Source: a virus
Taxonomy: Duplodnaviria; Caudoviricetes
DNA length: 52,300 bases
IMG/VR virus record: IMGVR_UViG_3300014913_000017
Coordinates: 1-52,300 of that record
Direction: 5' to 3' (one strand)
A model generated the notes under the pieces. It had not been told where the DNA came from and made no database searches. It saw only the letters and a program-made list of their open reading frames with translations. Shown here piece by piece: positions 1-49,418 of the stretch; position 1 is the first letter of the stretch, and the number at the start of each line of letters is the position of its first letter. Position numbers and translations under genes: made by a program.

Positions 1-981
1 GTCAACACCGTGGGCAAGCCGTTCAATGAAGCGGAGGCGGACGTGTTGAAGTATTGGGACGATCGCCTCCCCGCTGAAAAAACGGACTGGGCCACGTTCC
101 TGAATGACAACAAGGATCTGGATCCCGGGAGGCGTGTAGATTTTGAAAAGCTGGCCCGCAAGTTTGTGAAGGACACGGGGAAGGGGACGGCCAAGGGAGG
201 GTGGGGTACACCCGAAACCGCCCACCGCTTTGTCAAGGGCACCACGGCGGTGAAGAAAAACGCCATGCCCACGATCGATGGGAAGCGGGCCGGGACTAAG
301 GCCATGCACCCAGTACAACTGGCGAATGGAAAAACCAAATACCCATCAGACTACAGGGAGGCCAACAAGATCCAGCGGGAGGTCAACTCATGGGTGGACA
401 TGGACACGATCGCGGAGCGTGGTGTCCAACGCGCCCGGGGTGACAAGCTGTTGGCCGAATCCTGGCACCCCAAAAACCAGCGGTTGACGCTGTGGTGGTC
501 CAAGCGGCAAGGGATCGGTGGATTCTATTCCGGAAGCCATGCCCGGCACCTGAGTGACACCACCATGTCCGCCAAGTGGCGCACCAAGCGGAGGCAATTC
601 CAGGCCATGAAGTCCATCAACGATCGGGCCCTGAAAGGGGAGGCCGGGTTCGATGCGTTCAAGTATGACGTGGCCCACGAGTGCGGACACGTGCTCCAGG
701 AAATGAACCCCAACGCCAACCACCTGGGCATGGCGATCATGAAGCGGAGGATCAAGGACACCGGGGCCAGGAAAGTGTGGAACCCCAACGGGCAATACTG
801 GCATTATCCGGACACCAGATCCGTGACCAATTACACCTCCGCCACTTACAACGGCTGGCCACCAGGCATTGAATATCCCTCGGAAGGCGTGGCCCAGTTT
901 TGGAAAAACCCCATGCAACTATTCGAGGCGGACCCGGAGCATTTCTTCTATATCACTTCACTGATGCGTGGGGGGATGTGA
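1..981 (+). CDS. 5'-truncated probable minor head/MuF-type protein with C-terminal zincin metallopeptidase (toxin-like) domain
   Basis: Frame open from base 1. HEXXH motif (VAHECGH), downstream Glu (IEYPSEG) and C-terminal DPEHFFYI. Lies directly upstream of scaffold/protease/capsid genes, the usual MuF position. The MuF domain itself is outside the window. Confidence 0.6.
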   Translation, partial: VNTVGKPFNEAEADVLKYWDDRLPAEKTDWATFLNDNKDLDPGRRVDFEKLARKFVKDTGKGTAKGGWGTPETAHRFVKGTTAVKKNAMPTIDGKRAGTKAMHPVQLANGKTKYPSDYREANKIQREVNSWVDMDTIAERGVQRARGDKLLAESWHPKNQRLTLWWSKRQGIGGFYSGSHARHLSDTTMSAKWRTKRRQFQAMKSINDRALKGEAGFDAFKYDVAHECGHVLQEMNPNANHLGMAIMKRRIKDTGARKVWNPNGQYWHYPDTRSVTNYTSATYNGWPPGIEYPSEGVAQFWKNPMQLFEADPEHFFYITSLMRGGM

Positions 982-1331
982 TGGCGATTGTTTCCACTGG
1001 CTGGTTGACCTTGGACGGCAAGGATCGATTGAAGGTCACGCTTTCAGATCGTGGCAAGCTGTCATTCAGTGGGGACGGTCCATCCGACTGGGCCAACGTG
1101 GTGCTGGAGGAGTATGGGGATTTCATGGTGTACGCCAATGGCGGTTCCACCCACCTGTTGCCCGTGACCCCGGCCACGTTCCCTGATTTTCTCAACAAGG
1201 TGGCCACCCTCGCATGGCGCAACCTGGAGGTGGATTGGAAATGGCGGGTGGAGGAGGGGGACGTGCGGCCGGACATCGGATCCCCGTCCAACCTGGAGGG
1301 GGAAATCCCCGATCGGTCCGGATGGTACTGA
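981..1331 (+). CDS. small hypothetical protein, candidate immunity partner of the upstream metallopeptidase
   Basis: ATG at 981 overlaps the upstream stop (TGATG coupling). 116 aa starting MAIVSTGWLT. Immunity role inferred from context only. Confidence 0.55.
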   Translation: MAIVSTGWLTLDGKDRLKVTLSDRGKLSFSGDGPSDWANVVLEEYGDFMVYANGGSTHLLPVTPATFPDFLNKVATLAWRNLEVDWKWRVEEGDVRPDIGSPSNLEGEIPDRSGWY

Positions 1332-2326: not shown

Positions 2327-2389
2327 CCCAGTTAAGCGGCCACCGTTGCATGGTCACACCTGGCGGTGGCCCGCCAGGAGGCCAAGGCA

Positions 2390-5300
2390 ATGCCCGCTGA
2401 TCACGCACCCACCCACGGAATTTTCCTCCCATCCAAGCTGATCAAGATCCTGGCGGAAGGCCGGGGCCTGGTCCTGTTGTCCCCGGAGGATCGGATGTAC
2501 GATCCGGCCACCACGTACCTGGCGGTGGACACTGGATCGGTGGTGGGCACCATCACCCCAGGCGTGGGAACGTCCATGCCTGTGGCGGAAGCTGTGAAGC
2601 AATCCCACGGGTACAAGCCCGGGGGCATGGCCAAGCGTTGGCCGGACGCGGAATCACTCACGGTGTGGCCCGTCGAGTTTTCCCCGCTGGTGGACCGTGT
2701 GCCCCTGGCCGTCCTGGGGTCCATGGAATACGGGGAGGTGTTCAAGGTGAGCCTGGACGCCCCCGTGGTGACCATGGGCGCGGAGGCCGTCGAGGCGGTC
2801 CGGGAGGCCAAGCGTGGGGCCCGCGCCTGGGCCCAGGGCGTGGCCGGATTCCTGGCGGACGTGGAGGGCCACGTGGGCCCCGGGACAGGTGCCCTCCTGG
2901 GCGCAATGCCCCGCGCCAGCCAGGGCCTCCAGGATGCCCTGAAATCGATCGCAGTCCAGGGGGGTACAAGGGCCCCCGTTTCCGATTTCGCGGGCATGGT
3001 GGACAAGCTGGGCCCCATGGTGGACAAGCTGGCCCAAGCCCTCCCGGAAGGTGACCTCCGGGACGCCATGGAAGCCCGGGCCAGCTACCTGGACGCCCTG
3101 GCCGTGGCTGTCCGGTATGCCAAGGCCAGCCTCCCCGCGTTGAAGCTGCCGGATCCGCTGTGGGTGGTGAAGCGGTTGGGCGCGGACAAGGAGGCCGGGT
3201 TCCTGAGTGAACAGCCCCAGGCCAGCCGTGTGGACCGTGACCAGTACCTGGTCAATGATGTGCTGGCCAAGGAGGGCACCGTGTACGGGCGTCCATTCGC
3301 ATGGGCGATCGTTCGCACGGGTGAGCCCCTCCAGGTGGACCACGCGGACCTGGACCGCCTCCCCGTGGACAAGTCCACGCGGGCAGAGTGGCGGGACCGC
3401 ACGGGGAACAACGCCTGGCACATCCCGATCAAGCTGGTGCGGGAACTGGATCCCCCGGTGGAACTGCGGGACGCACCTCCCGGGGATCGGTTTGCTTCCG
3501 GGCTGGACCTGGTGGCGGAAGCTGTCACCAAGGTGGACCTCCCCGATCCCACGGACCTCCGCACGTTGAAGCCCGCCGCCCTCCAGGCTGTACATGATGA
3601 ACTGGTGGCGGAATGGGAGGCGCGGTACCAGGGATCCGATCAGGTGCAAGGCCGGGAGGATCTGGTCAACGCGATCCTGTTCACTCGCCAGGAATACGAT
3701 CGGCGCGGGATGGACGCCCCCCAGGTTCCCGGTGAACTGGACACGGAACTGGGCGCACTGATCGGGGTGAAGCAAGCCCAGGCGGTGGAGGACACCACGG
3801 GCACCAGGCCCCCGATCACGCTGGCCCAGGTGCTGGACGGAATGAAGAAATCGATCACCCTCCGCCGTGGGGTGGTCACGGTCACGGGCCCGGTGTGCGG
3901 ACAGGGTGCCACACGCAATGACGTGGACCTGGTGATCCAGGGCCCCATGGACGGCGGGCTCCGCAAGGCGTTGGAATCGAGGCTGGGCGGATCCTTCCCG
4001 GCAACGATCAGTCCCCGGCTGAGTTTCCAGCATGACCCGGAACTGATCGGACCGTTCACCGATCACGTGGAGGCATTTGACCTGGTGCTGGCCCCGCGTG
4101 ATCACCATGACGTGGTGGAACTGCGGGCGGTGGAAAAGGCGGGTGATCCCCTCCTGGATATGCCTGCGAAACGTGGACCACGGCAAGCGGTCCTCCAGTA
4201 CCACTGGCGTGGGAAAACCCTCCACGCGGACCTCCGCATGAAGGTGGGATCGGATTTCCTGGTGGGCTGGACCCTGATGCTACAGAAACCAGGGATCCCC
4301 CAACCGGACACGATCGCCCAGGCCAAGGAAATGGCGGGGACGTTCAACCCGGACGGCGGGAAGTACAACAAGGACATGGTGGCACCGGAGGCCGTCCAGG
4401 CCGTCCCGAAAAAGCGGCAACCCGTCGAGTGGTTGCACATGGAAGGTGAAGCGATCGAACCTGGGGAGGTGGGCGCAACCACCAACCTCCCGGGCTTCAT
4501 TGTCGAGATCCCCGGCGGTCCCGATTTCGCGGAACTGGGAATCCAGGGCCCCGCGTTCCATGAATACTTTTTGACGGGTGGATCGAAGCTGATCGGGAGG
4601 CTCATGTTCCGGCAGTTGCCCGGCCGTGATGGTGGGGATCCATTCTGGCGGGCGATCGTTTCCAAGGAACACCTCCCCTCCGTCCTGGATCGGCGGGCGG
4701 TGCGGACAAAGGCCATGCCCCCGGATGGGTACTCATGGATCCCCACGTCCCTGGAACGGGTGACGCCCAAGGAGTTCAGGTACTGGGAACACAAGGGGGA
4801 GGAGGCGCGGAAGATCCGGGACGCCCTGGTGGCTGATCGTTTCTTCACCAAGGACAACGTGAAGATCGTCAACGGGCAGTTTGCCCGCGTCGATTCCACG
4901 CGCAAGTACACGCTGTTTGTGCCGGACGGCATGGACGCGGGCGCGGTGGTGAAGCCCGCACCCAAGTGGGACTGGGTGCTGTCACACCAGGTGTGGAAAG
5001 GCCAACAGGGAACCACGCGGGAGGTGTGGCGTTTCGGCCTGGTGAGACACACCCAGCCGATCCAGTTTGAACTGACCACGGATCCCGTGGCCACGCCTTC
5101 CGTGCCCGCGGTCATGAAACGGTTGAAGGGGAGGGCCCTGTGGGATCTGAACGGTGAAGTGGAACGGGGCCGTGAGTACGGCGGGGACGTGTTCAACGAT
5201 ACCGCCTCCACGCCTTCCCTGATCACCCAGGTGGACAAGGGCACCGCCACGATCCTGGAGGAGGCACCAGGCCGGATCCTGTTGCGCCTCCGTGGTGACA

Positions 5301-6172
5301 GTGTGCGGGGCGTGTTCGCACTCGACGCGGAGGAGGAGGGATCCTCCCAGTGGATGTTGACCAGGACGGAAGGCCAACAGCCCCAGGTGGAAAAGGAGGA
5401 ACCCGTCGAGGAGGAGGCCAAGCCGGAACCGCGCCAGATCGCGGTCAAGGTGGTGGACGGCATGGACCTGGTGGTGGGCCCAGTCAAGGATCCAACCACG
5501 TGGAGGGACGTGATCAAGGTGGGGGAGGATCACTGGGTGACAGTTGGATCCGTTGGCGCGGACACCGGGGCCAAGCCTGGTGACGTGATCGTGATCGATG
5601 CGGACGCGGTGGGATATGAACGGGACGCGGTGGGCAAGCAACGCCTCCAGTGTGGTGGATCGATCGCCACCGCTGGCGCGTCCGTTCCCTTCACCACGGA
5701 ACAGGTGCTGGACCTCCTGGAGGGCGGTGAATTCAACAAGTACGTTGACACTGTGATCGGCAACCTGTTAAAAATCGTAAAGGCCGAACAGGACGCCACG
5801 GCCGATCGTTGCTTTGTTTTCGGGGAGGTTCTAGTCCCCAACATTGGAACCACGGAAGGCGAGGACAGCCAGGGTGACACGTACACGGTGCATGATGTCG
5901 AGGAGGCGTGTTATTCGTTCATGCGTCACGGCCACCGCCACGGCCTCATGCACTCGCAATTCATTGACGGCAAGGTCACCCTCCTGGAAAACTACCTGGC
6001 ACCCATGGACATGACGTTGAAAGATCAGGACGGAGACGAACGCACCATCCCCAGGGGAACCTGGCTGATGAAATGCGAGATCATCGATCCCGATCTGAAA
6101 CAGGCCGTGCGGTCCGGGGACCTGACAGGGTTCAGCGTGGGTGGATCTGGCGTCCGCACCCGGGTAAGGTAA
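2390..6172 (+). CDS. multidomain polyprotein with C-terminal XkdF-like (peptidase S78_2) prohead protease and N-terminal ASCH-like x2, nucleotidyltransferase-like and LigD-phosphoesterase-like x2 cargo domains
   Basis: C-terminus FVFGEVLVP..DSQGD..VEEACYSFM..GLMH..GTWLM..GDLTGFSVGG matches XkdF-type proteases. Internal VTVTGPVCGQGATRNDVDLVI (NTase-like) and VLQYHWRGKTLHADLRM (LigD PE-like). SD AGGAGG favours ATG 2390 over GTG 2366. Confidence 0.75.
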   Translation: MPADHAPTHGIFLPSKLIKILAEGRGLVLLSPEDRMYDPATTYLAVDTGSVVGTITPGVGTSMPVAEAVKQSHGYKPGGMAKRWPDAESLTVWPVEFSPLVDRVPLAVLGSMEYGEVFKVSLDAPVVTMGAEAVEAVREAKRGARAWAQGVAGFLADVEGHVGPGTGALLGAMPRASQGLQDALKSIAVQGGTRAPVSDFAGMVDKLGPMVDKLAQALPEGDLRDAMEARASYLDALAVAVRYAKASLPALKLPDPLWVVKRLGADKEAGFLSEQPQASRVDRDQYLVNDVLAKEGTVYGRPFAWAIVRTGEPLQVDHADLDRLPVDKSTRAEWRDRTGNNAWHIPIKLVRELDPPVELRDAPPGDRFASGLDLVAEAVTKVDLPDPTDLRTLKPAALQAVHDELVAEWEARYQGSDQVQGREDLVNAILFTRQEYDRRGMDAPQVPGELDTELGALIGVKQAQAVEDTTGTRPPITLAQVLDGMKKSITLRRGVVTVTGPVCGQGATRNDVDLVIQGPMDGGLRKALESRLGGSFPATISPRLSFQHDPELIGPFTDHVEAFDLVLAPRDHHDVVELRAVEKAGDPLLDMPAKRGPRQAVLQYHWRGKTLHADLRMKVGSDFLVGWTLMLQKPGIPQPDTIAQAKEMAGTFNPDGGKYNKDMVAPEAVQAVPKKRQPVEWLHMEGEAIEPGEVGATTNLPGFIVEIPGGPDFAELGIQGPAFHEYFLTGGSKLIGRLMFRQLPGRDGGDPFWRAIVSKEHLPSVLDRRAVRTKAMPPDGYSWIPTSLERVTPKEFRYWEHKGEEARKIRDALVADRFFTKDNVKIVNGQFARVDSTRKYTLFVPDGMDAGAVVKPAPKWDWVLSHQVWKGQQGTTREVWRFGLVRHTQPIQFELTTDPVATPSVPAVMKRLKGRALWDLNGEVERGREYGGDVFNDTASTPSLITQVDKGTATILEEAPGRILLRLRGDSVRGVFALDAEEEGSSQWMLTRTEGQQPQVEKEEPVEEEAKPEPRQIAVKVVDGMDLVVGPVKDPTTWRDVIKVGEDHWVTVGSVGADTGAKPGDVIVIDADAVGYERDAVGKQRLQCGGSIATAGASVPFTTEQVLDLLEGGEFNKYVDTVIGNLLKIVKAEQDATADRCFVFGEVLVPNIGTTEGEDSQGDTYTVHDVEEACYSFMRHGHRHGLMHSQFIDGKVTLLENYLAPMDMTLKDQDGDERTIPRGTWLMKCEIIDPDLKQAVRSGDLTGFSVGGSGVRTRVR

Positions 6173-6176
6173 GACC

Positions 6177-7769
6177 ATGAGCGCAACAGGCTTGAAGATC
6201 ACCAAGGGCAAGGACGGAACGTATCGCCTGACCTCCATGGACATCGGGGAGGTGAGCCTTGTTGATCGTGCCGCCAACAAACGGCGGTTCATTTTCGCCA
6301 AGCGGGAGGACACCATGAGCGGTGCAGAGTTGAAGGAAACCCAGGACGGATCCCTGGTGCTGGAAAAGGATCAGGGAACGGACACGGACACGGATCCCAC
6401 CGGGACGGATGACACGGGGGACGTGGCCAAGGGGATCGATCTGTCCGCGGCGAAAAAGGCGGAACTGGCCCCGCTGTCCCACAAGGTGGTGGAGGCCGCC
6501 TTGCACTTCCACAACCAGGTGGCGAGTGCCAAGGAGGTCAAGGAGGGTGCCGCGGTTCCCCAGTCACTGGTGGACGAGGGCAAGGCGTTGAAGGCGGCCC
6601 AGGGTGAACTGGACCGGGCCCTGTTCGGCACGGCGGAAGGTGAGGAGGCCACGGCCAGCGATACCGCGGGGGACGCGGACGTGGAGGACGGTGGTGCCGG
6701 ATCTGCCCCCCCGGCACAGCCGGACAAGGCCAAGGCCACCAAGGCGTTGACCACGGAGGAACGCAACAAGCTGCCGGACGCTGATTTCGCATTGCCCAAG
6801 GAACGGAAGTACCCGATCCCGGACATCAGCCATGCCCGCAACGCCCTGGCCCGTGTGGCCCAGTCCGGGACGGAAGCGGAACAGGCCCAGGTCCGCGCCG
6901 CGGTGGAACGCAAGTACCCGGAACTGAAAAAGGCGGACGGGGACACGGACGCCACGGCGGAAGGTGACACCCCGGACACGGACGCCACCCCGGACACGGA
7001 CGTGGACAAGGCCACCTCCACGCACCAGGCCCTCCTGGATGAAAAGGTGGCGGCCCTGGAAAAGATCCTGGGTGAAATCGTGGGCAAGGTGTCCACCATG
7101 GATCCGGAGGAACTGCGGGCCCGCATGAGCCAGGCGCGTGACATCATGTGGCACATGGAGGAGGCGGTGGACGTGGTGAGCGTGGGCAAGTGCGTGGACG
7201 CCCTGACGGACGCGGACCTGGAGGCCATGGCTTCCGGTGAACTGCCGGACACGCTGGCCAAGGTGGGGCGCAAGATGAGCGGCCGGAACCTGTCCAACTT
7301 CAACGGGGCCCTGGGCACCATCCGTGGCGAGTTGGAAAAGCTGTTCCAACTGTACCGGGCCCTCCTACCCCCGGAGCAACAAGGCAAGGCGGACGCCCTC
7401 CACAAGCGGCTGATCGAAGACATGGGCCTCCCGGAGGTCCCCGCGGACAACGCGGGCGGATCGTTCACGTGGCCGGAATCCCCGGCGGGAACGCTGCCTG
7501 ATGCTGCGGAGCCTGGCCCGGCCAAGGATGAACTGGCCCGGCTGGAAAAGCTGGCCAAGGTCAAGGAGGCGGAGGCCAAGGAACTGCGGGGCAAGCTGGC
7601 CAAGGCGGAAGCGGAAGCGGCCACGGTGCCTCCCCCGTCGAGTGGCCAGGCGGACGGCCCCCAGGCGGGCACCGTCACCAAGGGTGACAGCGGCGGTGAT
7701 GACGACTGGCCCATGGACATGAACATGAGCGAATACCGCCGGAAGGTTGCCTCCGGGGAAACAACCTGA
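6177..7769 (+). CDS. scaffold-like head protein 2 with N-terminal protease segment (EVSLVDRAAN) and DUF6582-like domain
   Basis: N-terminal RLTSMDIGEVSLVDRAANKRRF. ERNKLPDADFALPKERKYPIPDISHARNALAR resembles DUF6582. KVGRKMSGRNL motif, coiled coil and C-terminal DWPMDM. Immediately precedes the capsid gene. Confidence 0.7.
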   Translation: MSATGLKITKGKDGTYRLTSMDIGEVSLVDRAANKRRFIFAKREDTMSGAELKETQDGSLVLEKDQGTDTDTDPTGTDDTGDVAKGIDLSAAKKAELAPLSHKVVEAALHFHNQVASAKEVKEGAAVPQSLVDEGKALKAAQGELDRALFGTAEGEEATASDTAGDADVEDGGAGSAPPAQPDKAKATKALTTEERNKLPDADFALPKERKYPIPDISHARNALARVAQSGTEAEQAQVRAAVERKYPELKKADGDTDATAEGDTPDTDATPDTDVDKATSTHQALLDEKVAALEKILGEIVGKVSTMDPEELRARMSQARDIMWHMEEAVDVVSVGKCVDALTDADLEAMASGELPDTLAKVGRKMSGRNLSNFNGALGTIRGELEKLFQLYRALLPPEQQGKADALHKRLIEDMGLPEVPADNAGGSFTWPESPAGTLPDAAEPGPAKDELARLEKLAKVKEAEAKELRGKLAKAEAEAATVPPPSSGQADGPQAGTVTKGDSGGDDDWPMDMNMSEYRRKVASGETT

Positions 7770-7892: not shown

Positions 7893-8822
7893 ATGACAAA
7901 CGCGGAAGTGATCCGCAAGGCGGACATGGTGCTGAACGATCTCCTGACGGGAGGTGGTTTGCTGCAACCCGAACAGGCGCGGCGTTTCATGAGGCTGGCG
8001 ATCGATCGATCGGTCCTGCTGCCCATGACCTCCGTGATCCCCATGAAGCGGCCCAGCCTCCTGATCGACAAGATCAGGTTCGGGTCCAGGATCCTCCGTG
8101 CGGGCACGGAAGCCCAGGCCCTCCCCGTGGGTGAGAGGTCCAAGCCGGATCTGTCCCAGGTCCAACTGGACACCCACCTGATGCGGGCGGAGGTCCGGCT
8201 GTCCAGTGAGGTGTTGGAGGACAACATCGAACAGGCCAACTTCAAGGACACCCTGATCCAACTGATCGCGGAACGGGTGGCCCTGGACGTGGAGGATCTG
8301 CTGATCAACGGGGACACCGGATCGGCGGATCCCTTCTACGCCCAGTTCAACGGGCTCCTCCAGGCCATTTCCACGTACATCTATGACCACGGCGGCCTCC
8401 CGTACAGCAAGGTGGTCACCAAGTCCATGTTGAAGCTCATGCCCACGGAATTCCTCCAGGACCGTGCGGCCATGCGCGTGTTCTACTCACAGGACCAGGA
8501 CACGGACTACCGCGATCTGATCGCGGAGCGGGCCACCAACCTGGGTGATGACACGTTCAAGGGCAACCGCCCGATCGTCACCTACGGTGTCCCCCACGTG
8601 CCCGTGTCCAAGTTCCCGGAGACACTGGCCCCCGGCACCAGGTCCAACGCGGTGCTGGTGGATCCCAAGAACCTCCAGACCGGATGGTGGCGGCAGATCC
8701 AGATCGAAACCGCCAAGGACATCAGCGCGGGCGTCCTGATCATCGTGGTCACCCTCCGGATGGGATTCGTCCTGGCGGAGGAAACGGCGGCGGTCAAGGC
8801 GATCAACATCGACGTGGCCTAG
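7893..8822 (+). CDS. major capsid protein (HK97 fold)
   Basis: GGLLQPEQARRF, LSSEVLEDNIEQANF, VALDVEDLLINGDT and C-terminal EETAAVKA are typical of phage MCPs. SD GGAGG. Confidence 0.9.
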   Translation: MTNAEVIRKADMVLNDLLTGGGLLQPEQARRFMRLAIDRSVLLPMTSVIPMKRPSLLIDKIRFGSRILRAGTEAQALPVGERSKPDLSQVQLDTHLMRAEVRLSSEVLEDNIEQANFKDTLIQLIAERVALDVEDLLINGDTGSADPFYAQFNGLLQAISTYIYDHGGLPYSKVVTKSMLKLMPTEFLQDRAAMRVFYSQDQDTDYRDLIAERATNLGDDTFKGNRPIVTYGVPHVPVSKFPETLAPGTRSNAVLVDPKNLQTGWWRQIQIETAKDISAGVLIIVVTLRMGFVLAEETAAVKAINIDVA

Positions 8823-10191: not shown

Positions 10192-10737
10192 ATGGGTGGT
10201 GGTTCATGGGGCGTTGGGGATGTTGAGGTGTTGGCCCAGCACCTGGGCAGAATCCCGGTGGATGATCTGGCGCACAGGCTGGGCCGTGAGCCCCCGGAAG
10301 TGAGGGCCAAGGCCCTGGCCCTGGTCCTGGAAAGCAAGCCCTCCACGTGCCCCCTGGGCCCTATCACGCCTGAATTAATCGAATCCCTCCGCCCCGTCAC
10401 ATGGGGTGAGTGTGAAAAAGGACCACGGCCGTGTCCGTGGGTTGGTTGTCGGTATCACCTGGTGTGGGAATCAATCCGCCGGACCATGAAGGTGACCCCC
10501 CGGAAGTTTCCCAGCTTGGACGATCGGGAGGTGGTCAACCACGTGGCCATGATGGAGGACACGTGTGCCCTGGATCTGGTCATGGCCAGGGGCCCGTACA
10601 CGTTGCATGAGATCGGGGAAATGTGGGGGATCACCCGTGAGCGTGTGCGCCAGGTGGAGGTCATGGCAAAGCGATCTTACAGGCGGGAGGCCCTCCGGTT
10701 GGGGCGTCCATGGTTGCTTGATCTGATTGGCCTGTGA
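10192..10737 (+). CDS. sigma70 region-4-like HTH protein with Cys/His cluster
   Basis: YTLHEIGEMWGITRERVRQVE (sigma r4 HTH), GPRPCPWVGCRYHL and TCALD. TAAGCT 6 nt before the ATG and no SD suggest a leaderless transcript. Confidence 0.75.
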   Translation: MGGGSWGVGDVEVLAQHLGRIPVDDLAHRLGREPPEVRAKALALVLESKPSTCPLGPITPELIESLRPVTWGECEKGPRPCPWVGCRYHLVWESIRRTMKVTPRKFPSLDDREVVNHVAMMEDTCALDLVMARGPYTLHEIGEMWGITRERVRQVEVMAKRSYRREALRLGRPWLLDLIGL

Positions 10738-44024: not shown

Positions 44025-44905
44025 TGACCACCACAACAGCAACCACCATGATCGCCTTCGTGCTGGCGATCATCACTGGACACGTTGACCCGGCCACGCC
44101 TCGCACCTCCACGGTGCGCCTGGTGTACCGCCGGGACGATCGCAAGGCGGAGGCGGATCGTCGTCGCGCCGCCCGCATGGCGTACAAGGAGGCCAAGGAC
44201 AAGCTGGCCTCCGTGCGCCGCCAGGCATCCAAGGCCAGCGGGGAGGACCGTGAGGCCCTCCAGCGGAAGGCCGATCGCATGGAGCCCAAGGTGGCGGACC
44301 TCCGCGCCAGGTGGAAGGAACTGGTGGCGCGGGACAAGGCCAGCCGGGTGCCCGCCAAGGATCGCAAGCGCGGGCCGTGTGCCGGTGCGGTTCCCACCCC
44401 GGAGGGATTCGAGATCGTCCTCCGCCCGCGGGATTTCTATCACCAGACCATTGACCCGAACTGGACCCCCCCGCCGTCACAGCGCACGGCCGTGGGCAAG
44501 TACGTGTTTCCCACGTTCCATGAGGAGGCCCCAGCCCGCGTGGAGGCTTTCATCCGGATCCGCGTTCCCGGCAACGGGGTGAGCGATCAGGAACTGGCCA
44601 CCATGGTGGGAGACTACTTCGATCAGGAGGATTCCAGGGTGTACTGGGGCCGGGTGCGCGTGCTGTTGATCGAGCGGGACACCAGGCCGTACAAGCGGGA
44701 TCAGGCCACGGTGAAGATCAGCACGGACCACAGGAGGATCCGTGGGATGATCCATCCGTCCGATCAGGTGTACAGGGGGCCGTACAAGGGAGGAAATGGC
44801 GGGGGCGGGGCCCCAGCGGCCAACCAGGGCTCCCGCGCCGCCGCACGAGCAACAACCGATCTGAATGTATCCCAGGACGTGGATCACGTCAACGGAGGTG
44901 AGTGA
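44024..44905 (+). CDS. hypothetical coiled-coil protein
   Basis: SD GGAGG, basic coiled coil followed by a globular domain. Confidence 0.6.
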   Translation: MTTTTATTMIAFVLAIITGHVDPATPRTSTVRLVYRRDDRKAEADRRRAARMAYKEAKDKLASVRRQASKASGEDREALQRKADRMEPKVADLRARWKELVARDKASRVPAKDRKRGPCAGAVPTPEGFEIVLRPRDFYHQTIDPNWTPPPSQRTAVGKYVFPTFHEEAPARVEAFIRIRVPGNGVSDQELATMVGDYFDQEDSRVYWGRVRVLLIERDTRPYKRDQATVKISTDHRRIRGMIHPSDQVYRGPYKGGNGGGGAPAANQGSRAAARATTDLNVSQDVDHVNGGE

Positions 44906-47484
44906 TGACGATCAAGGCCAAGCGATCGGGCAAGTGCCCCACGTGCAAGAAGGCGATCAGCGCGGGCGATCCAATCACCAAGTGCAACGGCCGGTGGGTG
45001 TGCGAGGAATGCGCCTCCAAGGCGGAGCCCACGGGCCCCAGGCCAACGGATCTGGAGGTTGCCCTCGCCAAGCAAACGCTGGATCAGGTGGTGGCCAACA
45101 TGATCATGCGCGGTGCCCCCGATCATTACGATGATCAGGGATTCAACAAGCCGGACCACGGGCCCGGAAAGCGGTGGAACGATCGCACGCACCGTGGCCG
45201 GAACTGGCCCTCCTCATGGGTCAAGATGGGTGACCGCCTCCACAAGTACCGCCGCCAGATCACGGAAATGGACCTGTGGGACAAGCTCACGGAGGCCCGG
45301 GAGGTGCTGGGACGTTTCGCGGAGTGGGATGACAGGGACCGCCACGGCCACCAGGATGCCCCACAGGGCGCGGGGGCCTCGACGGGCACCAGCACACGGG
45401 CCGGGACCGGAACGGACGCTGTGGCCCCTCCTGGGCCCCTGGTACCCCCGGGCCTGTTGCCCACGCTGGAGGACGCCTGGGGTGATCACTGGATCGCGGT
45501 CCGTTTCCCGTATGACGCGGACCTGGTGGCCAAGGTCAAGGCCCTCCCCAAGCGGAGGTGGGACAAGGCCAAGCGGGCGTGGCTGGTGCCCCTGGGCCTG
45601 GGTGGCCGGGCGGGTGAGATCCTCCGGGCCAAGTCCGATCCCCTCCTCGACGCAATCGCGGATTCAATTTTCGATCTGCCGGGCGTGGCCCATGCCGTGA
45701 AGGAAACGGAGGCGGCCCTGGGGCTGTCCCGTGCGGTCAACGGGGACGCTGCGGGCAAGGAGGGCGCGGCCGTGGTCAAGGACGTGGAGGCGTCACTCGC
45801 ACCGCACCTCCCCGCCGGGCTGGAACTGTACCCGTTCCAGGCGGTGGGTGTGGGGTTCATGGCCACCAACAAGGGCCGGGCGATCGTGGCTGATGAAATG
45901 GGCACGGGGAAAACGATCCAGGCACTGGCGTTCCTGATCCATGAGGTGGCCCAAGGTCGCAACCCGTTTCCGTGCGTGGTGGTGTGCCCGGCCGTGGTCA
46001 AGCTGAACTGGGAACGGGAGGCCAACAAGTGGCTGTCAAAGCTGGACGGGATCCAGGTCCACGTGTGCAACGGCAACAAGCCCGCACCGGAGGGCACTGA
46101 CCTGGCGATCATCAATTTCGATCTGATGTCCAGGCGAGTGAAGATCGAGGAAACCAAGGAGGGACGGCGCAAGGTGATCACGGTCAAGGAGGTGGTGGGA
46201 CTGCCCGCGAAACCAGCCACGGTGATCGTGGATGAAAGCCACAAGATCAAAAACCCCAAGGCCAAGCGCACCAAGGCCACCACCCAGTACAGCAACCTGG
46301 CGGACAATCGCCTGTTCCTGTCCGGCACCCCGATGTTGAACAGGCCGATCGAATTGTTCCCCACGCTGTCCTGTGTTCGCCCGGAGGAGTGGCGTTCATT
46401 CTGGGCCTTTGCCAAGCGGTACGCGGGCGCATACCGCGGGCGGTTTGGTTGGGACATGAGCGGGGCTTCCAACCTGGAGGAACTGCGGAACCGCCTCCAC
46501 CCCATCATGTTGAGGCGGAAAAAGGAGGACGTCCTGACGGAACTGCCTCCCAAGCGGAGGGCCAGGCTCACGTTGGAACTGTCCAACCGTGGCGAGTACA
46601 ACCGGGCGGAACGTGACCTGATCAACTGGCTGAAAGAAACCACCAAGGCCATGACGCTGGCGGAGGCGGAGGAGGCCGGGCTCACGGGTGAGGCCGCGGA
46701 CAAGGAGGCAAGCCGGAAGGCCAACGCCAAGGCCAGCGCCGCCAAGCGGGCGGAGCACCTGGTCCGCATGAACGCCCTCCGCAAGCTGGCGGGCGTGGGC
46801 AAGGTCAAGGCCGCGGTGAAGTGGATCGGGGATCTGTGGGAAGCGGACGGGGAACGCAAGCTGATCGTGTGGGCTCACCACAAGGACGTGGTGGCGGAAG
46901 TGATCAGCCAGGTACATGAACAGTTCCCGGAGGTGGGGATCGTGAGCCTCACAGGTGACACCACCCAGGCCAGGCGGCAGGAGGTGATCGATTCGTTCCA
47001 GGAGGATCCGGAGGTCAAGCTGTACGTGGGAACCACCACCGCGGGCGGGATCGGGATCACGCTCACGGCGGCCAGTGATTGCCTGTTCCTGGAACGTGAG
47101 TGGGTGCCGGGTGATGAGGAACAGGCGGAAGATCGCGCCCACCGGATCGGCCAGGCCGGGCCGTCCGTCACGTGTTGGTACGCGGACGCGGAGGGCACCA
47201 TCGATCACGATTTCGCGGAACTGGTGGAAGGCAAGCGGGTGATCGCGGGCCAGGTGATCGACGGCAACAAGCCCGTGGTGGCCAAGTCCCGGCTGGGTGA
47301 GATCACCAGGCTGTTGGCGGAACGCCACGGAATGGATCCGCTGGAGGTGGGTGCGGTCCTGGCGGGCCGTTCCAAGGGTGCGGACCTGGTGGCGGAGGCC
47401 AAGCGGGAGGAGGAGGGAATCGAGGAGGAGGAATACGTGGCCAACTGTGACGCGGATCAACAGCGCCGCCTGGGTGCGGAATGA
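44902..47484 (+). CDS. SNF2-family helicase with HARP domain (SMARCAL1-like annealing helicase)
   Basis: ADEMGTGKT, VIVDESH, LSGTPMLNR, MLRRKK, GITLTAA, QAEDRAHRIGQ. HARP-like RFPYDADLVAKVKALPKRRWD. N-terminal CPTC..CEEC. Confidence 0.92.
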   Translation: MMTIKAKRSGKCPTCKKAISAGDPITKCNGRWVCEECASKAEPTGPRPTDLEVALAKQTLDQVVANMIMRGAPDHYDDQGFNKPDHGPGKRWNDRTHRGRNWPSSWVKMGDRLHKYRRQITEMDLWDKLTEAREVLGRFAEWDDRDRHGHQDAPQGAGASTGTSTRAGTGTDAVAPPGPLVPPGLLPTLEDAWGDHWIAVRFPYDADLVAKVKALPKRRWDKAKRAWLVPLGLGGRAGEILRAKSDPLLDAIADSIFDLPGVAHAVKETEAALGLSRAVNGDAAGKEGAAVVKDVEASLAPHLPAGLELYPFQAVGVGFMATNKGRAIVADEMGTGKTIQALAFLIHEVAQGRNPFPCVVVCPAVVKLNWEREANKWLSKLDGIQVHVCNGNKPAPEGTDLAIINFDLMSRRVKIEETKEGRRKVITVKEVVGLPAKPATVIVDESHKIKNPKAKRTKATTQYSNLADNRLFLSGTPMLNRPIELFPTLSCVRPEEWRSFWAFAKRYAGAYRGRFGWDMSGASNLEELRNRLHPIMLRRKKEDVLTELPPKRRARLTLELSNRGEYNRAERDLINWLKETTKAMTLAEAEEAGLTGEAADKEASRKANAKASAAKRAEHLVRMNALRKLAGVGKVKAAVKWIGDLWEADGERKLIVWAHHKDVVAEVISQVHEQFPEVGIVSLTGDTTQARRQEVIDSFQEDPEVKLYVGTTTAGGIGITLTAASDCLFLEREWVPGDEEQAEDRAHRIGQAGPSVTCWYADAEGTIDHDFAELVEGKRVIAGQVIDGNKPVVAKSRLGEITRLLAERHGMDPLEVGAVLAGRSKGADLVAEAKREEEGIEEEEYVANCDADQQRRLGAE

Positions 47485-48191: not shown

Positions 48192-49418
48192 ATGGCCGAA
48201 AAGAGGGGACGCCTCCCCATCGAACGTGTACTAACCAATTCCATGCGGAACCTGTGGACCACGTGCCACCGGAGGTTTTATTACCGCCGGGTGGAAGGGC
48301 TGGAACGAATCATCCAGGCCCGCGCCTTGTCCGTGGGCAAGCTGTGGCACTATGGACTGGCCGCGCATTACCTGGGGATCCAGGCCGCCCAGAATGTGGG
48401 CCCCAACCAGGATCCCGGGGATCTCGGATACCCGGAGCCCCATGACGCGGTGGACCAGTTCCTGGCCGCGTACCTGGTGGAACTGGAGGAACTGCCGGAC
48501 CAGGACATGGCCCAGGGTGCCATGGAGGACGCCCGGAAAAACGGGGCCCTGGTCCATGACCTCCTGGAGGCGTACCTGGACCACTGGGACGGGTGGGACC
48601 AGTGGGAAATCCTGGCCGTGGAAACACCGCTGGAAATGCGGCTGTTGACGCCCAAGGGCACCAGGTCACACTGGCGGTTTGCCGGGATCCCTGACGTGGT
48701 GGTGAGGGACAGATCGGACGGACGGATCAAGATCGTGGATCACAAGTCCACCAGCACCATGTCCCGCGAACAGTTCCAGGCGGAACTGGAACTGGATCCC
48801 CAGTCCCGCGGGTACTGTTTGCTGTGGTCCACCCTGAACAATGGGGAGGAGGCTGATTTCGTTTTCGACGTTCAGCGCACCAAGATCCCCAAGCTGCCCG
48901 CCACCACCGTGTGCCCCAAGTGCAACGGCAAGATCAAAAAGGATCCCGCCTTCAACAACCCGGAGTGCCCGGTGTGCAATGGCACCAACGTGAAGGGGAT
49001 CACCGCTCGCAAGAATCTGGACACCACCCCCCAGGCATACCGGGAGGTGTTGGCCAAGTACCCGCACCTGGACCCGGAGGATCCTCAGTACGTGGAGGCA
49101 CTCATGCGACTGGAGGCCCGGGCCGATTGCTGGGCGTATCGTTTCGAGCTTTCCTACACGGCGGAGGAACTGGCGGACTACCACCGGGAGGCGTATGAGG
49201 TCACGCGGGAAATGTCGGAGGCCGGGTACTGGACCCGGAACCTTTCCGCGTGTTTCGCACCTGGGCGCGTGTGCGCGTTCCGCTACCTGTGCCTGTCGGA
49301 AGGCAACAGCGCGAAACAGTCGGAAGCCCGGGCCATGTTCCGCAAGGTGGACGGCACGGTGTCCCCGGATCTCCGGACCGTCGAGGACGCGATCAACTCT
49401 GACATGATCCCCTTTTAG
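48192..49418 (+). CDS. PD-(D/E)XK exonuclease (RecB/Cas4-like) with Zn-ribbon insertion
   Basis: TCHRRFYY, VGKLWH, LAVE, GIPDVV..IVDHKS, Q...Y, C-terminal Cys cluster, internal CPKC..CPVC. Confidence 0.85.
   Translation: MAEKRGRLPIERVLTNSMRNLWTTCHRRFYYRRVEGLERIIQARALSVGKLWHYGLAAHYLGIQAAQNVGPNQDPGDLGYPEPHDAVDQFLAAYLVELEELPDQDMAQGAMEDARKNGALVHDLLEAYLDHWDGWDQWEILAVETPLEMRLLTPKGTRSHWRFAGIPDVVVRDRSDGRIKIVDHKSTSTMSREQFQAELELDPQSRGYCLLWSTLNNGEEADFVFDVQRTKIPKLPATTVCPKCNGKIKKDPAFNNPECPVCNGTNVKGITARKNLDTTPQAYREVLAKYPHLDPEDPQYVEALMRLEARADCWAYRFELSYTAEELADYHREAYEVTREMSEAGYWTRNLSACFAPGRVCAFRYLCLSEGNSAKQSEARAMFRKVDGTVSPDLRTVEDAINSDMIPF

Follow-up and report, generated by a model that had tools for sequence, protein, structure and literature searches.

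A prohead protease fused to a chain of putative DNA end-processing domains in a phage head module

The prohead protease of the phage represented by IMG/VR record IMGVR_UViG_3300014913_000017 forms the tail of a 1260-aa polyvalent head protein, in which it is preceded by a chain of domains that appears to derive from DNA end-processing enzymes (Table 1). The stretch that we analysed, hereafter the window, comprises positions 1 to 52,300 of this record (52,300 nucleotides). Our favoured reading, held with moderate confidence, is that this is a head-morphogenesis protein whose protease and end-processing chain would be packaged together, the chain then being cleaved off and ejected with the DNA. 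An initial annotation had read the protein as a long series of domains from nucleic-acid enzymes joined to a prohead protease, and a Pfam match for the protease together with profile-level homologies for the other domains bears this out. Overall, its observations were partly confirmed and its interpretation partly supported; five of its six domain calls hold with profiles made from relatives.

Table 1. Features of the polyprotein and neighbouring head genes in the window
Feature	Residues (aa)	Position (nt)	Strand	Basis
Whole gene, 1260-aa polyvalent head protein		2390..6172, stop codon included	+	ORF list, translation
ASCH-like domain 1	1-130	2390..2779	+	profile match to 2DP9/1WK2
Ala-rich spacer	131-245	2780..3124	+	between ASCH-like domains
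ASCH-like domain 2, paralogue of domain 1	246-385	3125..3544	+	hhalign
Conserved spacer before NTase	386-470	3545..3799	+	local jackhmmer
Minimal Pol-beta-type nucleotidyltransferase (NTase)	471-590	3800..4159	+	motif, profile, hhalign
PE1, putative LigD-type 3'-phosphoesterase	591-750	4160..4639	+	hhalign, profile
Conserved connector	751-855	4640..4954	+	alignment A8, 43 sequences
PE2, second PE-fold domain	856-1000	4955..5389	+	profile, hhalign
Post-ligase beta domain	1017-1100	5438..5689	+	family position
XkdF-type prohead serine protease	1137-1256	5798..6157	+	Pfam PF14550, PHROG
MuF-like head protein, C-terminal part, HExxH motif, upstream		1..981	+	L006 homologue
Scaffold-like gene, directly downstream of polyprotein		6177..7769	+	DUF6582, phrog_16160
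HK97-fold major capsid protein gene		7893..8822	+	Phage_capsid 3.3e-8, phrog_1623 1.1e-90

The polyprotein is encoded by a single plus-strand ORF (2366/2390-6172). Its likely start is the ATG at 2390, with an AGGAGG ribosome-binding site at 2376-2381; the database holds an identical 1260-aa protein, and a 76% relative starts at the same residue. All motifs quoted in the initial annotation were found at the positions given, namely VTVTG (3875-3889) and NDVDLVI (3917-3937) in the NTase, the LigD-phosphoesterase-like QYHWRGKTLHADLR (4196-4237), and QVDKGTATILE (5228-5260), LRGDSVRGVFAL (5288-5323) and WMLTR (5351-5365) in PE2. The curated-family match of the window protein is confined to its C-terminus: searched with their own sequence, the N-terminal 1130 aa had no Pfam or NCBIfam match even at E<=10 and no PDB match by phmmer. 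Most domain calls rest on family profiles, not on the window sequence alone. Ten mismatched control comparisons by hhalign all gave <=0.7%; thus, the positive hhalign scores given below are not an artefact of the method.

The C-terminus is the phage's own prohead protease and its only recognisable head protease. Peptidase_S78_2 (PF14550) matched this region with E 6.1e-18 (65.5 bits, cut-off 24), in agreement with the earlier view that the last ~130 aa resemble an XkdF/S78 protease, and its PHROG matches are head-maturation-protease families. PF14550 has no other match in the window, and in 5/5 complete relatives the single match likewise falls within the polyprotein ORF; searches of the window and of four complete relatives turned up neither a Peptidase_S78 nor a ClpP protease. 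D1159, H1188, S1249 and W1225 are present in 129/129 relatives, the first three being candidate catalytic residues. The gene order is portal, MuF-like, polyprotein/protease, scaffold, capsid. The MuF-like protein has the HExxH sequence HECGH in the alignment, and its full-length 822-aa homologue in locus L006 follows the portal gene (Phage_Mu_F E 1.7e-4, below cut-off). The protease lies in the same ORF as the polyprotein in 62 of 80 related viral loci. Among these 62, 59 have a scaffold-like homologue no more than 400 nt to either side of the polyprotein gene, 57 a major capsid protein homologue <=2.5 kb downstream, and 56 both at these distances; in 49 loci the module is preceded by a portal gene.

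Within the cargo, PE1 gave an hhalign score of 92.5% (E 5e-7, 109 columns) against 25 canonical LigD PE domains. Pfam LigD_N matched 10/47 members (best E 0.002), and the best PDB match of the PE1 profile, 3P4H, aligned via the catalytic motif with a weak E of 0.35. Residues Q603, H605, H612, D614 and R616 are present in the window and align to Gln7, His9, His15, Asp17 and Arg19 of CkoPE, for which Mn-binding and phosphate-binding roles are described in PMC3082917. The LigD-like reading of QYHWRGKTLHADLR was right at profile level, with H605, H612, D614 and R616 aligning to solved PEs, and PE1 retains their Mn-binding His-His-Asp and phosphate-binding Arg. Across 181 cluster representatives, each of the five residues is kept in 160-177 (H605 in 169, H612 in 172, D614 in 174, R616 in 177). 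PE1 also carries a ~45-aa insert, and it has Gln677 where canonical PEs have a phosphate-binding His; changing that His to Ala inactivates CkoPE (PMC3082917). Only 26/181 relatives have His at this position.

PE1 is followed by a connector in which W753, P763, M776-P777-P778, G780, S782, P785, W799 and R810 are invariant (43 sequences), and for which the PDB gave no match (best E 0.23). The PE2 profile matched the PE structures 3P43 (6.1e-8), 3P4H (3.3e-6), 3N9B (0.073) and 2LJ6 (0.084), and hhalign scored it at 97.3% (E 2.7e-11) against canonical PE and 89.6% against PE1. The degenerate second PE-like block suspected earlier is therefore a PE homologue. The alignment showed no conserved His or Asp in its active-site columns, and PE2 is probably a catalytically dead duplicate of the fold.

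The Pol-beta-type motif was confirmed as homology by hhalign to 17 NTP_transf_2 domains (84.3%, E 7.2e-6) and by a profile match to ASFV Pol X across the motif (E 0.012). Its residues in the window are G500-P501, D511, D513 and D564; among 145 relatives, G500 is kept in 140, D511 in 138, D513 in 134 and D564 in 121. At position 501, 73 have G and 62 have S, giving G-G or G-S in 135/145, and the window alone has P.

Family comparison shows that the window polyprotein has undergone a deletion of a ligase adenylation domain. In relatives, the post-ligase domain directly follows this ligase domain, and the two occur in 123 and 121 of 182 family proteins, respectively. A possible OB-like remnant had been proposed here; the conserved domain is real, but an OB fold was not detectable (hhalign to ligase OB 0.7%), and the domain has only weak AbrB-like similarities.

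At the N-terminus, a 13-member profile of ASCH-like domain 1 matched 2DP9/1WK2 over positions 6-121 (E 1.1e-9); PMC6803910 counts 2DP9 among the ASCH domains. Pfam ASCH matched 2/13 members (best E 0.079), the window sequence being without a match. Domain 2 had no PDB match of its own and was linked to domain 1 by hhalign of their alignments (A5 vs A6, 93%, E 3.5e-7, 107 columns). Both ASCH/PUA-like blocks of the initial annotation are thereby upheld as homologues, and the GxKxxExR motif is absent from both as read from the window sequence. The Ala-rich spacer between them had no family match, only four close relatives by phmmer, and poor conservation (77, 42, 23 and 22% identity to P0003, P0004, P0005 and P0006). 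The spacer before the NTase occurs in 109/182 family proteins without a family assignment, and our guess is a helical fold.

The family is large (858 clusters, almost all from uncultivated viruses), and its usual architecture is nucleotidyltransferase-PE-PE'-ligase-protease, to which a Dam methylase is often added. Variable N-terminal cargo, which the initial annotation had proposed surveying in homologues, was indeed seen: by precomputed Pfam assignments, the polyprotein of 42 of 65 relatives includes a PF01068 domain (ATP-dependent DNA ligase), that of 33 a Dam methylase, that of 4 an AdoMet decarboxylase and that of 2 a 2H domain. The idea of an end-repair kit is strengthened by the fused ligases, whose profile matches solved DNA ligases at 1e-16.

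The NTase-PE-PE'-ligase-protease arrangement would be a functional analogue of bacterial LigD (NHEJ), able to add nucleotides, heal 3' ends and seal. In both, a single polypeptide joins a nucleotide-adding domain, an ATP-dependent ligase adenylation domain and a homologous PE whose Mn-binding His-His-Asp and phosphate-binding Arg are shared. However, LigD uses an AEP primase-polymerase, whereas the phage family has a ~120-aa Pol-X-like NTase. The family also differs in its duplicated PE with a seemingly inactive second copy, in the PE insert and the usual lack of the second phosphate-binding His, in a ligase C-terminal domain not recognisable as an OB fold, and in its fusion to a capsid protease within a head module; the window copy is also without the ligase domain. 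No Ku partner was found in five complete relatives.

No cultured phage yielded the LigD-like module in three tblastn queries of 50,697 phage records, which returned only the uncultured archaeal virus contig ANMV-1. Among GenBank phage/virus records, the module is present only in its protein AJP62006.1, which bears the annotation 'ATP-dependent DNA ligase' and is encoded next after the portal gene. The protein comprises an NTase-like region (aa 34-145), a ligase (aa 180-362) and a PE1-connector-PE2 part (aa 453-862), with a match to the window at 28% identity (E 2e-37); it differs in having the ligase between NTase and PE module and no fused protease. A stand-alone XkdF-type protease of the same family, the 'serine protease' of Stenotrophomonas phage DLP3, also lies upstream of scaffold and capsid genes, and the DLP3 capsid protein is ~40% identical to that of the window. 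In DLP3, however, the protease is a ~200-aa protein between portal and scaffold, with a separate 'ParB-like nuclease domain protein' gene between the protease and portal genes.

That polyvalent or effector proteins ending in a capsid protease are packaged into heads has been published before as a general idea. Iyer et al. 2017 (PMC5512222) described polyvalent proteins from phages and conjugative elements, and PMC9503650 deals with head-packaged effectors whose fusion partner is MuF, the portal or the capsid-processing peptidase; in these papers, the capsid-maturation-type peptidase is always C-terminal, and packaging and injection are the authors' inference. The window family resembles these proteins in being multi-domain, in its place among morphogenesis genes and in its C-terminal peptidase, and the variable N-terminal enzymes of its relatives fit the published pattern. 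The published cargo consists of ARTs, RNases, MTase-helicases and nucleotide-signal degraders, whereas the family described here would carry a DNA end-repair set. The passages searched in the two papers make no mention of LigD, of DNA ligase within polyvalent proteins, of XkdF or of ASCH, and LigD-like cargo on a capsid protease was not found in the literature searched.

From the fusion and the gene order, we infer packaging and ejection of the polyprotein. The protease end would carry the whole protein into the procapsid, and self-cleavage would free the cargo, which would remain with the packaged DNA and be ejected with it. It could then act on the incoming phage DNA, healing 3'-phosphate or ribonucleotide ends and adding nucleotides. 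Relatives would use their fused ligase for sealing, and the window phage a ligase of the host or an undetected one of its own.

A less probable alternative, still worth weighing, is that the enzymes act in the producer cell. The polyprotein would be made late and gather at assembling procapsids, where its end-processing domains and, in relatives, the ligase and methylase domains would repair nicks in phage DNA, trim it or modify it before or during packaging, the protease fusion serving only co-expression or localisation and the cargo being degraded or left outside after maturation. The gene is located in the late head module, and phage Dam methylases are well known to act ahead of packaging. 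In 5/5 ligase-bearing relatives, the sole PF01068 match falls within the polyprotein ORF, and the window and three complete relatives yielded no NAD-dependent ligase; the phage may therefore have no ligase besides the fused one, which would also be needed in replication and packaging. Against this, the ligase is dispensable: at least four groups of loci have lost it and retain the rest of the module, and one complete 118-kb genome has no PF01068 match anywhere. Moreover, PMC5512222 and PMC9503650 link head packaging to this layout, in which variable multi-enzyme proteins carry the protease at their C-terminus.

It is unlikely that the N-terminal region is mainly structural, an internal core or scaffold extension digested at maturation whose enzyme-like folds are relics, at least in the window phage. 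The window polyprotein is indeed a reduced, partly eroded family member, given the lost ligase, the unique G-P, the missing ASCH motif and the Gln at the phosphate-binding His, and the presumably dead PE duplicate also favours this view. With the ligase and the ASCH motif missing and G-P in the NTase motif, part of the window cargo may be inactive. However, the PE1 metal and phosphate residues and the three NTase carboxylates (121-138/145) are kept in diverged relatives, and NTase, PE1 and connector are conserved to the same degree as the protease (window vs P0003-P0006; identity to P0005 is 63% for PE1, 64% for the connector and 66% for the protease), unlike what mere filler would show.

Repair of RNA after ejection, such as anticodon-nuclease-cut tRNAs or 2',3'-cyclic phosphate ends, the target first proposed, is the least probable reading: LigD PE is reported to remove 3'-phosphates and resect 3'-ribonucleotides, the literature ties ASCH domains to RNA, and two relatives add a 2H RNA-end phosphoesterase, but the described PE substrates are DNA primer-templates (PMC3082917 and LigD literature), and the common partners, DNA-type ligases and Dam DNA methylases rather than RNA ligases, point to DNA as the target. 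Returning to the favoured reading of a packaged and ejected end-processing protein, our results suggest that some phages may carry repair tools inside their capsids.

The polyprotein is encoded in the head module, and its C-terminal end is the only prohead protease that can be recognised. The curated Pfam model of Peptidase_S78_2 (XkdF) matches its C-terminus at 65.5 bits (cut-off 24, E 6.1e-18) and reaches 70.7 bits in a six-frame search of the window. It is the sole curated family matched by the 1260-aa protein, and all eight PHROG matches to the polyprotein fall on aa 1121-1257. The candidate catalytic residues of the protease are D1159, H1188 and S1249, which the window shares with 129 of 129 relatives. 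Each of five complete relatives (90-118 kb) has a single XkdF match, within the polyprotein ORF, and searches for Peptidase_S78 and ClpP-type proteases were negative for both the window and four complete relatives. The place of the gene in the head module, with a scaffold-like gene starting at 6177 and the major capsid gene at 7893, agrees with membership in the XkdF prohead proteases. Of the two possible start codons, we took the ATG at 2390 because it is preceded by AGGAGG and because a database copy (1260 aa) and a relative at 76% identity begin with the same residues.

Features of the polyprotein and of its surroundings in the window
Feature	Nucleotides	Residues (aa)	Strand	Remarks
MuF-like protein, C-terminal part	1-981		+	5'-open; upstream of polyprotein
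HExxH motif (HECGH)	676-690			within MuF-like ORF
AGGAGG	2376-2381			ahead of ATG 2390
Polyprotein ORF	2366 (GTG) or 2390 (ATG) to 6172	1-1260	+	
PE1, phosphoesterase-fold domain		591-750		
Connector	4640-4954	751-855	+	
PE2, phosphoesterase-fold domain		856-1000		
Short acidic linker		1001-1016		at ligase position
Post-ligase (beta) domain		1017-1100		
XkdF protease		1137-1256		Peptidase_S78_2
Scaffold-like gene	6177-7769		+	DUF6582, phrog_16160; downstream of polyprotein
HK97-type major capsid gene	7893-8822		+	phrog_1623, 1.1e-90; downstream of scaffold-like gene
ORF with sigma-70 region-4 match	10192-10737		+	Pfam 9.4e-7
Tape-measure gene				farther downstream
Baseplate genes				farther downstream
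SNF2-family helicase	44902-47484		+	farther downstream
PD-(D/E)XK nuclease	48192-49418		+	farther downstream

The window, a linear virus record from IMG/VR, is 52,300 bases long at an estimated completeness of 48%, and all of its large genes lie on the + strand. Gene order was surveyed in 80 related viral loci. The protease is part of the same ORF in 62 of the 80, and among these 62 a scaffold-like gene lies within ±400 nt in 59, a capsid gene within 2.5 kb in 57, and both are so placed in 56. Among the 18 loci without the protease, a scaffold-like gene occupies those positions in one and a capsid gene in three. A portal gene is found upstream in 49 of the 80 loci. At L006, a locus from a close relative, a portal gene (802 aa) is followed by the gene of a MuF-like protein (822 aa), two small ORFs and the polyprotein gene; Phage_Mu_F matches the 822-aa protein at E 1.7e-4, under the cut-off. 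The corresponding MuF-like ORF of the window carries an HExxH motif, and this end of it may be the metallopeptidase part of a second polyvalent head protein. The scaffold-like gene has an N-terminal motif, …VSLVDRAANKR…, that recurs in the DLP3 ORF at the scaffold position and at the N-terminus of the PHROG 3017 'head maturation protease', and which may be a capsid-targeting or protease-docking peptide. The ORF with the sigma-70 match sits within the structural block, directly after the head genes, and the helicase and nuclease genes belong to a replication or recombination part of the window.

Taken alone, the residues ahead of the protease resemble nothing in the libraries searched. Pfam gave no match at E<=10 to nine segments covering the ~1130 N-terminal residues of the window sequence, this region matched nothing in NCBIfam or, by phmmer, in the PDB, and six-frame searches of the window with the LigD_N, ASCH and DNA_ligase_A_C models were negative. 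Sub-threshold leads came from the ESM Atlas, in the form of viral clusters named LigD_N (0.88 and 0.86) and NTP_transf_2 (0.84). The motifs from which the initial annotation had proposed domains in this region are all present where it placed them; because the N-terminal sequence by itself matches nothing, these domain calls could be tested only through relatives. Domain alignments were made from DNA references to the 80 related loci. Several of the assignments rest on profile-profile scores of 84-97%, and as a control ten deliberately mismatched profile pairs scored <=0.7% in hhalign.

Two domains proved to be homologues of the phosphoesterase (PE) domain of LigD, a bacterial non-homologous end-joining enzyme. 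As a reference (alignment A9) we used 25 canonical LigD PE domains, out of 30 fetched from genomes of one bacterial phylum. Against it, PE1 (A2, 47 sequences) scored 92.5% in hhalign (E 5e-7, 109 columns) and PE2 (A3, 36 sequences) scored 97.3% (E 2.7e-11); the two matched each other at 89.6% (E 1.9e-6). The PE2 profile also found solved PE structures (3P43, E 6.1e-8; 3P4H, 3.3e-6; 3N9B, 0.073; 2LJ6, 0.084). For PE1 the best PDB match was 3P4H, at E 0.35 only, in an alignment that passes through the catalytic motif. The Pfam LigD_N model matches 10 of the 47 PE1 members, weakly (best E 0.002), with other families recurring in <=2 members; the curated model (PF13298) has no match in the window at E<=10, and precomputed matches to it occur in 2 of 65 relatives. 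Profile comparison thus bears out the earlier suggestion of a LigD-type PE followed by a second PE-like block, the latter being a PE homologue that has no conserved catalytic His or Asp.

LigD-type PE domains are eight-stranded beta barrels that carry the active site on the outer face, and their activities are Mn-dependent 3'-phosphatase and 3'-diesterase. In the solved enzyme CkoPE, the Mn ligands are His9, His15 and Asp17, phosphate is bound by Arg19 and His51, Tyr55 holds water and Gln7 braces Arg19, as described in PMC3082917. The alignment equates Q603, H605, H612, D614 and R616 of PE1 with Gln7, His9, His15, Asp17 and Arg19, respectively, and these residues are kept in 160, 169, 172, 174 and 177 of 181 representatives. 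PE1 therefore has the Mn-binding His/His/Asp set and the phosphate-binding Arg, which PE2 lacks; there is no conserved His or Asp in the active-site columns of PE2. At the positions of His51 and Tyr55, hhalign places Q677 and W681, and the His51 column holds Q in 92, E in 40 and H in 26 of the 181 representatives. Because the first five residues are kept while the His51 column differs, PE1 is predicted to be a PE homologue with an intact metal site and an altered phosphate pocket. K674, W681, H724 and E725 are near-invariant in the family, and K674, H724 or E725 may stand in spatially for the missing His. The connector between PE1 and PE2 contains ten invariant residues (W753, P763, M776-P777-P778, G780, S782, P785, W799 and R810) and has no PDB relative by profile search.

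Pol-beta-type nucleotidyltransferases (NTases) share the motif hG[GS]-x9-13-DhD and a third carboxylate downstream. The window protein has G500-P501, D511-V-D513 and D564, and in alignment A4 (37 sequences) G500, D511, D513 and G553 (A4 column G84) are invariant. Among 145 representatives, G500 is kept in 140, D511 in 138, D513 in 134 and D564 in 121. At the second motif position P occurs in the window alone; 73 of 145 relatives have G and 62 have S. The initial annotation's Pol-beta-type call is matched by similarity to known NTases: in the PDB the profile came closest to repair polymerase X of ASFV (E 0.012, a 40-residue stretch about the G-S...D-x-D motif), and hhalign against 17 bacterial NTP_transf_2 domains gave 84.3% (E 7.2e-6, 53 columns). 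Pfam NTP_transf_2 matches 2 of the 37 alignment members and has no match in the window. We assign this domain, with moderate confidence, as a putative minimal Pol-beta-type transferase.

The two N-terminal blocks were supported as ASCH-like domains, as they had been called. An ASCH reference alignment built from genomes was dropped (7 partial matches in 61 genomes), and because this reference was too sparse the assignment uses a PDB profile match. The block-1 profile (A6, 13 sequences) matches TTHA0113 of Thermus (2DP9/1WK2) over its full length at E 1.1e-9. Block 2 (A5) has no PDB match of its own and matches block 1 at 93% in hhalign (E 3.5e-7). Pfam ASCH (PF04266) matches 2 of the 13 block-1 members (best E 0.079) and not the window. 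PMC6803910 counts TTHA0113 (2DP9) among the ASCH domains, shows its GxKxxExR motif and describes this motif as lining the conserved cavity of ASCH domains. As read from A5 and A6, GxKxxExR is absent from both copies of the window, which have E-G-R-G-L-V-L-L-S (block 1) and G-A-D-K-E-A-G-F-L-S (block 2) in its place; relatives mostly have G-x-K-T-x-x-x-K there.

A DNA ligase is part of most relatives and is missing from the window protein. A local profile found the ligase adenylation domain in 121 of 182 relatives, and each of five ligase-bearing relatives has a single PF01068 match, within the polyprotein. The window protein has a short acidic linker at that position, and the whole window is free of matches to PF01068, the domain with the motif I lysine. 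The 52.3 kb, about 48% of the genome, yielded neither type of ligase, and a ligase gene may lie in the remainder. PF01068 also had no match in five ligase-less relatives, one of them complete (118 kb), and an NAD-dependent ligase was absent from the four records searched (three complete relatives and the window). A Ku partner was not found in five complete relatives. The family consensus for ligase motif I is K-x-N-G-x-R, as against K-x-D-G-x-R in the solved DNA ligases aligned with it. Relatives have a homologue of the post-ligase domain (A7, 34 sequences) directly behind their ligase, and at least four groups of related loci, one of them represented in the complete 118-kb genome, have lost the ligase with this domain kept. 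Its reading as an OB-like remnant did not hold up: hhalign against 25 DNA_ligase_A_C domains gave 0.7%, no OB match was found in the PDB or Pfam, PF04679 has no match in the window, and weak AbrB-like or Ph1 similarities are all that the domain shows.

The polyprotein belongs to a large family with varied architectures. An exhaustive comparison of aa 1-1130 with 1.84 billion cluster representatives by phmmer gave 858 matches at E<=1e-3, 600 at 1e-10 and 164 at 1e-30. A word-indexed search with aa 470-1000 returned 65 proteins of 777-2087 aa, for which precomputed Pfam lists give the XkdF protease in 59, the PF01068 adenylation domain in 42, a Dam-type methylase (PF02086) in 33, AdoMet decarboxylase in four and a 2H phosphoesterase in two. 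Local iterated profiles over 182 fetched proteins found PE1 in 181 and PE2 in 180, two profiles that cross-hit, together with the connector in 177, NTase in 145, protease in 129, post-ligase domain in 123 and the ASCH-like domains in 70 and 51; all of these family counts describe the subsets that the searches returned. The commonest order is (ASCH-like)-spacer-NTase-PE1-connector-PE2-ligase-beta domain-protease, and a second, protease-free form runs NTase-ligase-beta domain-PE1-connector-PE2. The window protein reads ASCH-ASCH-spacer-NTase-PE1-connector-PE2-beta domain-protease. The sole GenBank record with the module is ANMV-1 AJP62006, which has the second form directly after a portal gene (E 2e-37 to the window); among 50,697 phage records, the module is absent from cultured phages.

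Identity of window domains to those of four related family proteins (%)
Domain	P0003	P0004	P0005	P0006
NTase	82	64	55	50
PE1	77	63	63	62
Connector	87	68	64	75
Protease	84	64	66	60
ASCH-like block 1	73	50	30	25
Post-ligase beta domain	54	48	40	34

Judged by identities to these four relatives, conservation of the NTase, PE1 and the connector equals that of the protease, and divergence is faster in ASCH-like block 1, the spacers and the beta domain. Some relatives have an N-terminal AdoMet decarboxylase, and one contains a LAGLIDADG_3 domain that is possibly an intein (set: P0026, P0042, P0049, P0053 and P0004). Two loci, L085 and L086, are diverged polyprotein copies (100% and 85% to P0013) at the ends of one 105,832-base MAG contig, which resembles a phage genome assigned to a bacterial MAG during binning, perhaps as a chimeric or concatemeric assembly.

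Prohead proteases become part of the procapsid, from whose interior they cleave the scaffold and shell proteins. Here, ahead of the protease, lie a predicted transferase and a conserved, apparently active phosphoesterase, to which most relatives add a DNA ligase and, in many cases, a DNA methylase. Fusion to the protease would take this cargo into the procapsid, self-cleavage would free it, and the cargo could then leave with the DNA and process nicks or ends in the genome as it enters. The domains have a precedent of joint action in LigD, whose polymerase adds ribonucleotides, whose PE takes off 3'-phosphates and shortens the ribonucleotide tract to a single residue, and whose ligase prefers a nick with a 3'-monoribonucleotide, as described in PMC8656161. 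Among relatives the N-terminal enzymes vary (Dam methylase, AdoMet decarboxylase, 2H), which agrees with a conflict-related cargo that acts early.

We tentatively propose, as a possible rather than a probable reading, that widespread uncultivated phages of ~90-120 kb pre-load their capsids with a full LigD-like machine (Pol-X-like transferase, 3'-phosphoesterase and ATP-dependent ligase) on the prohead protease, often with a Dam methylase or AdoMet decarboxylase. Ejected with the genome, it would mend or seal incoming DNA (restriction cuts, nicks and genome ends) before phage genes are expressed, a 'repair on arrival' counter-defence. The kit of the window is reduced: the ligase is missing, the transferase may be impaired, the ASCH-like barrels lack the cavity motif and the PE metal site is intact in the alignment. 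Without a ligase of its own, this derivative would heal ends and leave a host ligase to seal them. The main alternative, which we consider less likely, is that the enzymes work inside the cell that produces the phage, on DNA before it is packaged. The RNA or tRNA target that the initial annotation had suggested beside DNA is considered unlikely, as the partner domains among the 65 relatives, DNA ligase (42) and Dam methylase (33), point to DNA and not RNA.

The polyprotein resembles the polyvalent proteins described by Iyer et al. (2017) in its many unrelated domains (here at least seven), its virion-gene context and its C-terminal capsid-maturation peptidase, which is XkdF here and which may fall within their 'assemblin-like' class. 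The principle was thus already known (Iyer et al. 2017); the head proteases with LigD-like cargo form a large family that lacks annotation, of which the window contains a member without the ligase. The terms LigD, XkdF, ASCH and 'DNA ligase' do not occur in the available text of Iyer et al. (2017), whose supplementary architecture lists may hold related forms, and LigD does not occur in the available text of two later papers on polyvalent or head-packaged proteins. Literature searches for a LigD phosphoesterase with a phage virion, for Peptidase_S78_2 with a DNA ligase and for XkdF virion mass spectrometry found no report of the combination, and a search for proteomic data on virions of the family found none.

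On a sober reading, this analysis provides domain assignments for about 1100 residues that have no curated-library annotation. The 858 clusters at 50% identity make the family a large one, which in relatives holds the phage's only recognisable ligase together with its head protease; its absence from cultured phages points to a considerable gap in what is known of phage biology. If the cargo is delivered, phages would carry DNA-repair enzymes into the cell, beyond proteins that protect DNA or modify the host, and these would constitute a new class of counter-defence against nucleases; the LigD phosphoesterase superfamily would also gain a second biological setting and a natural active-site variant.
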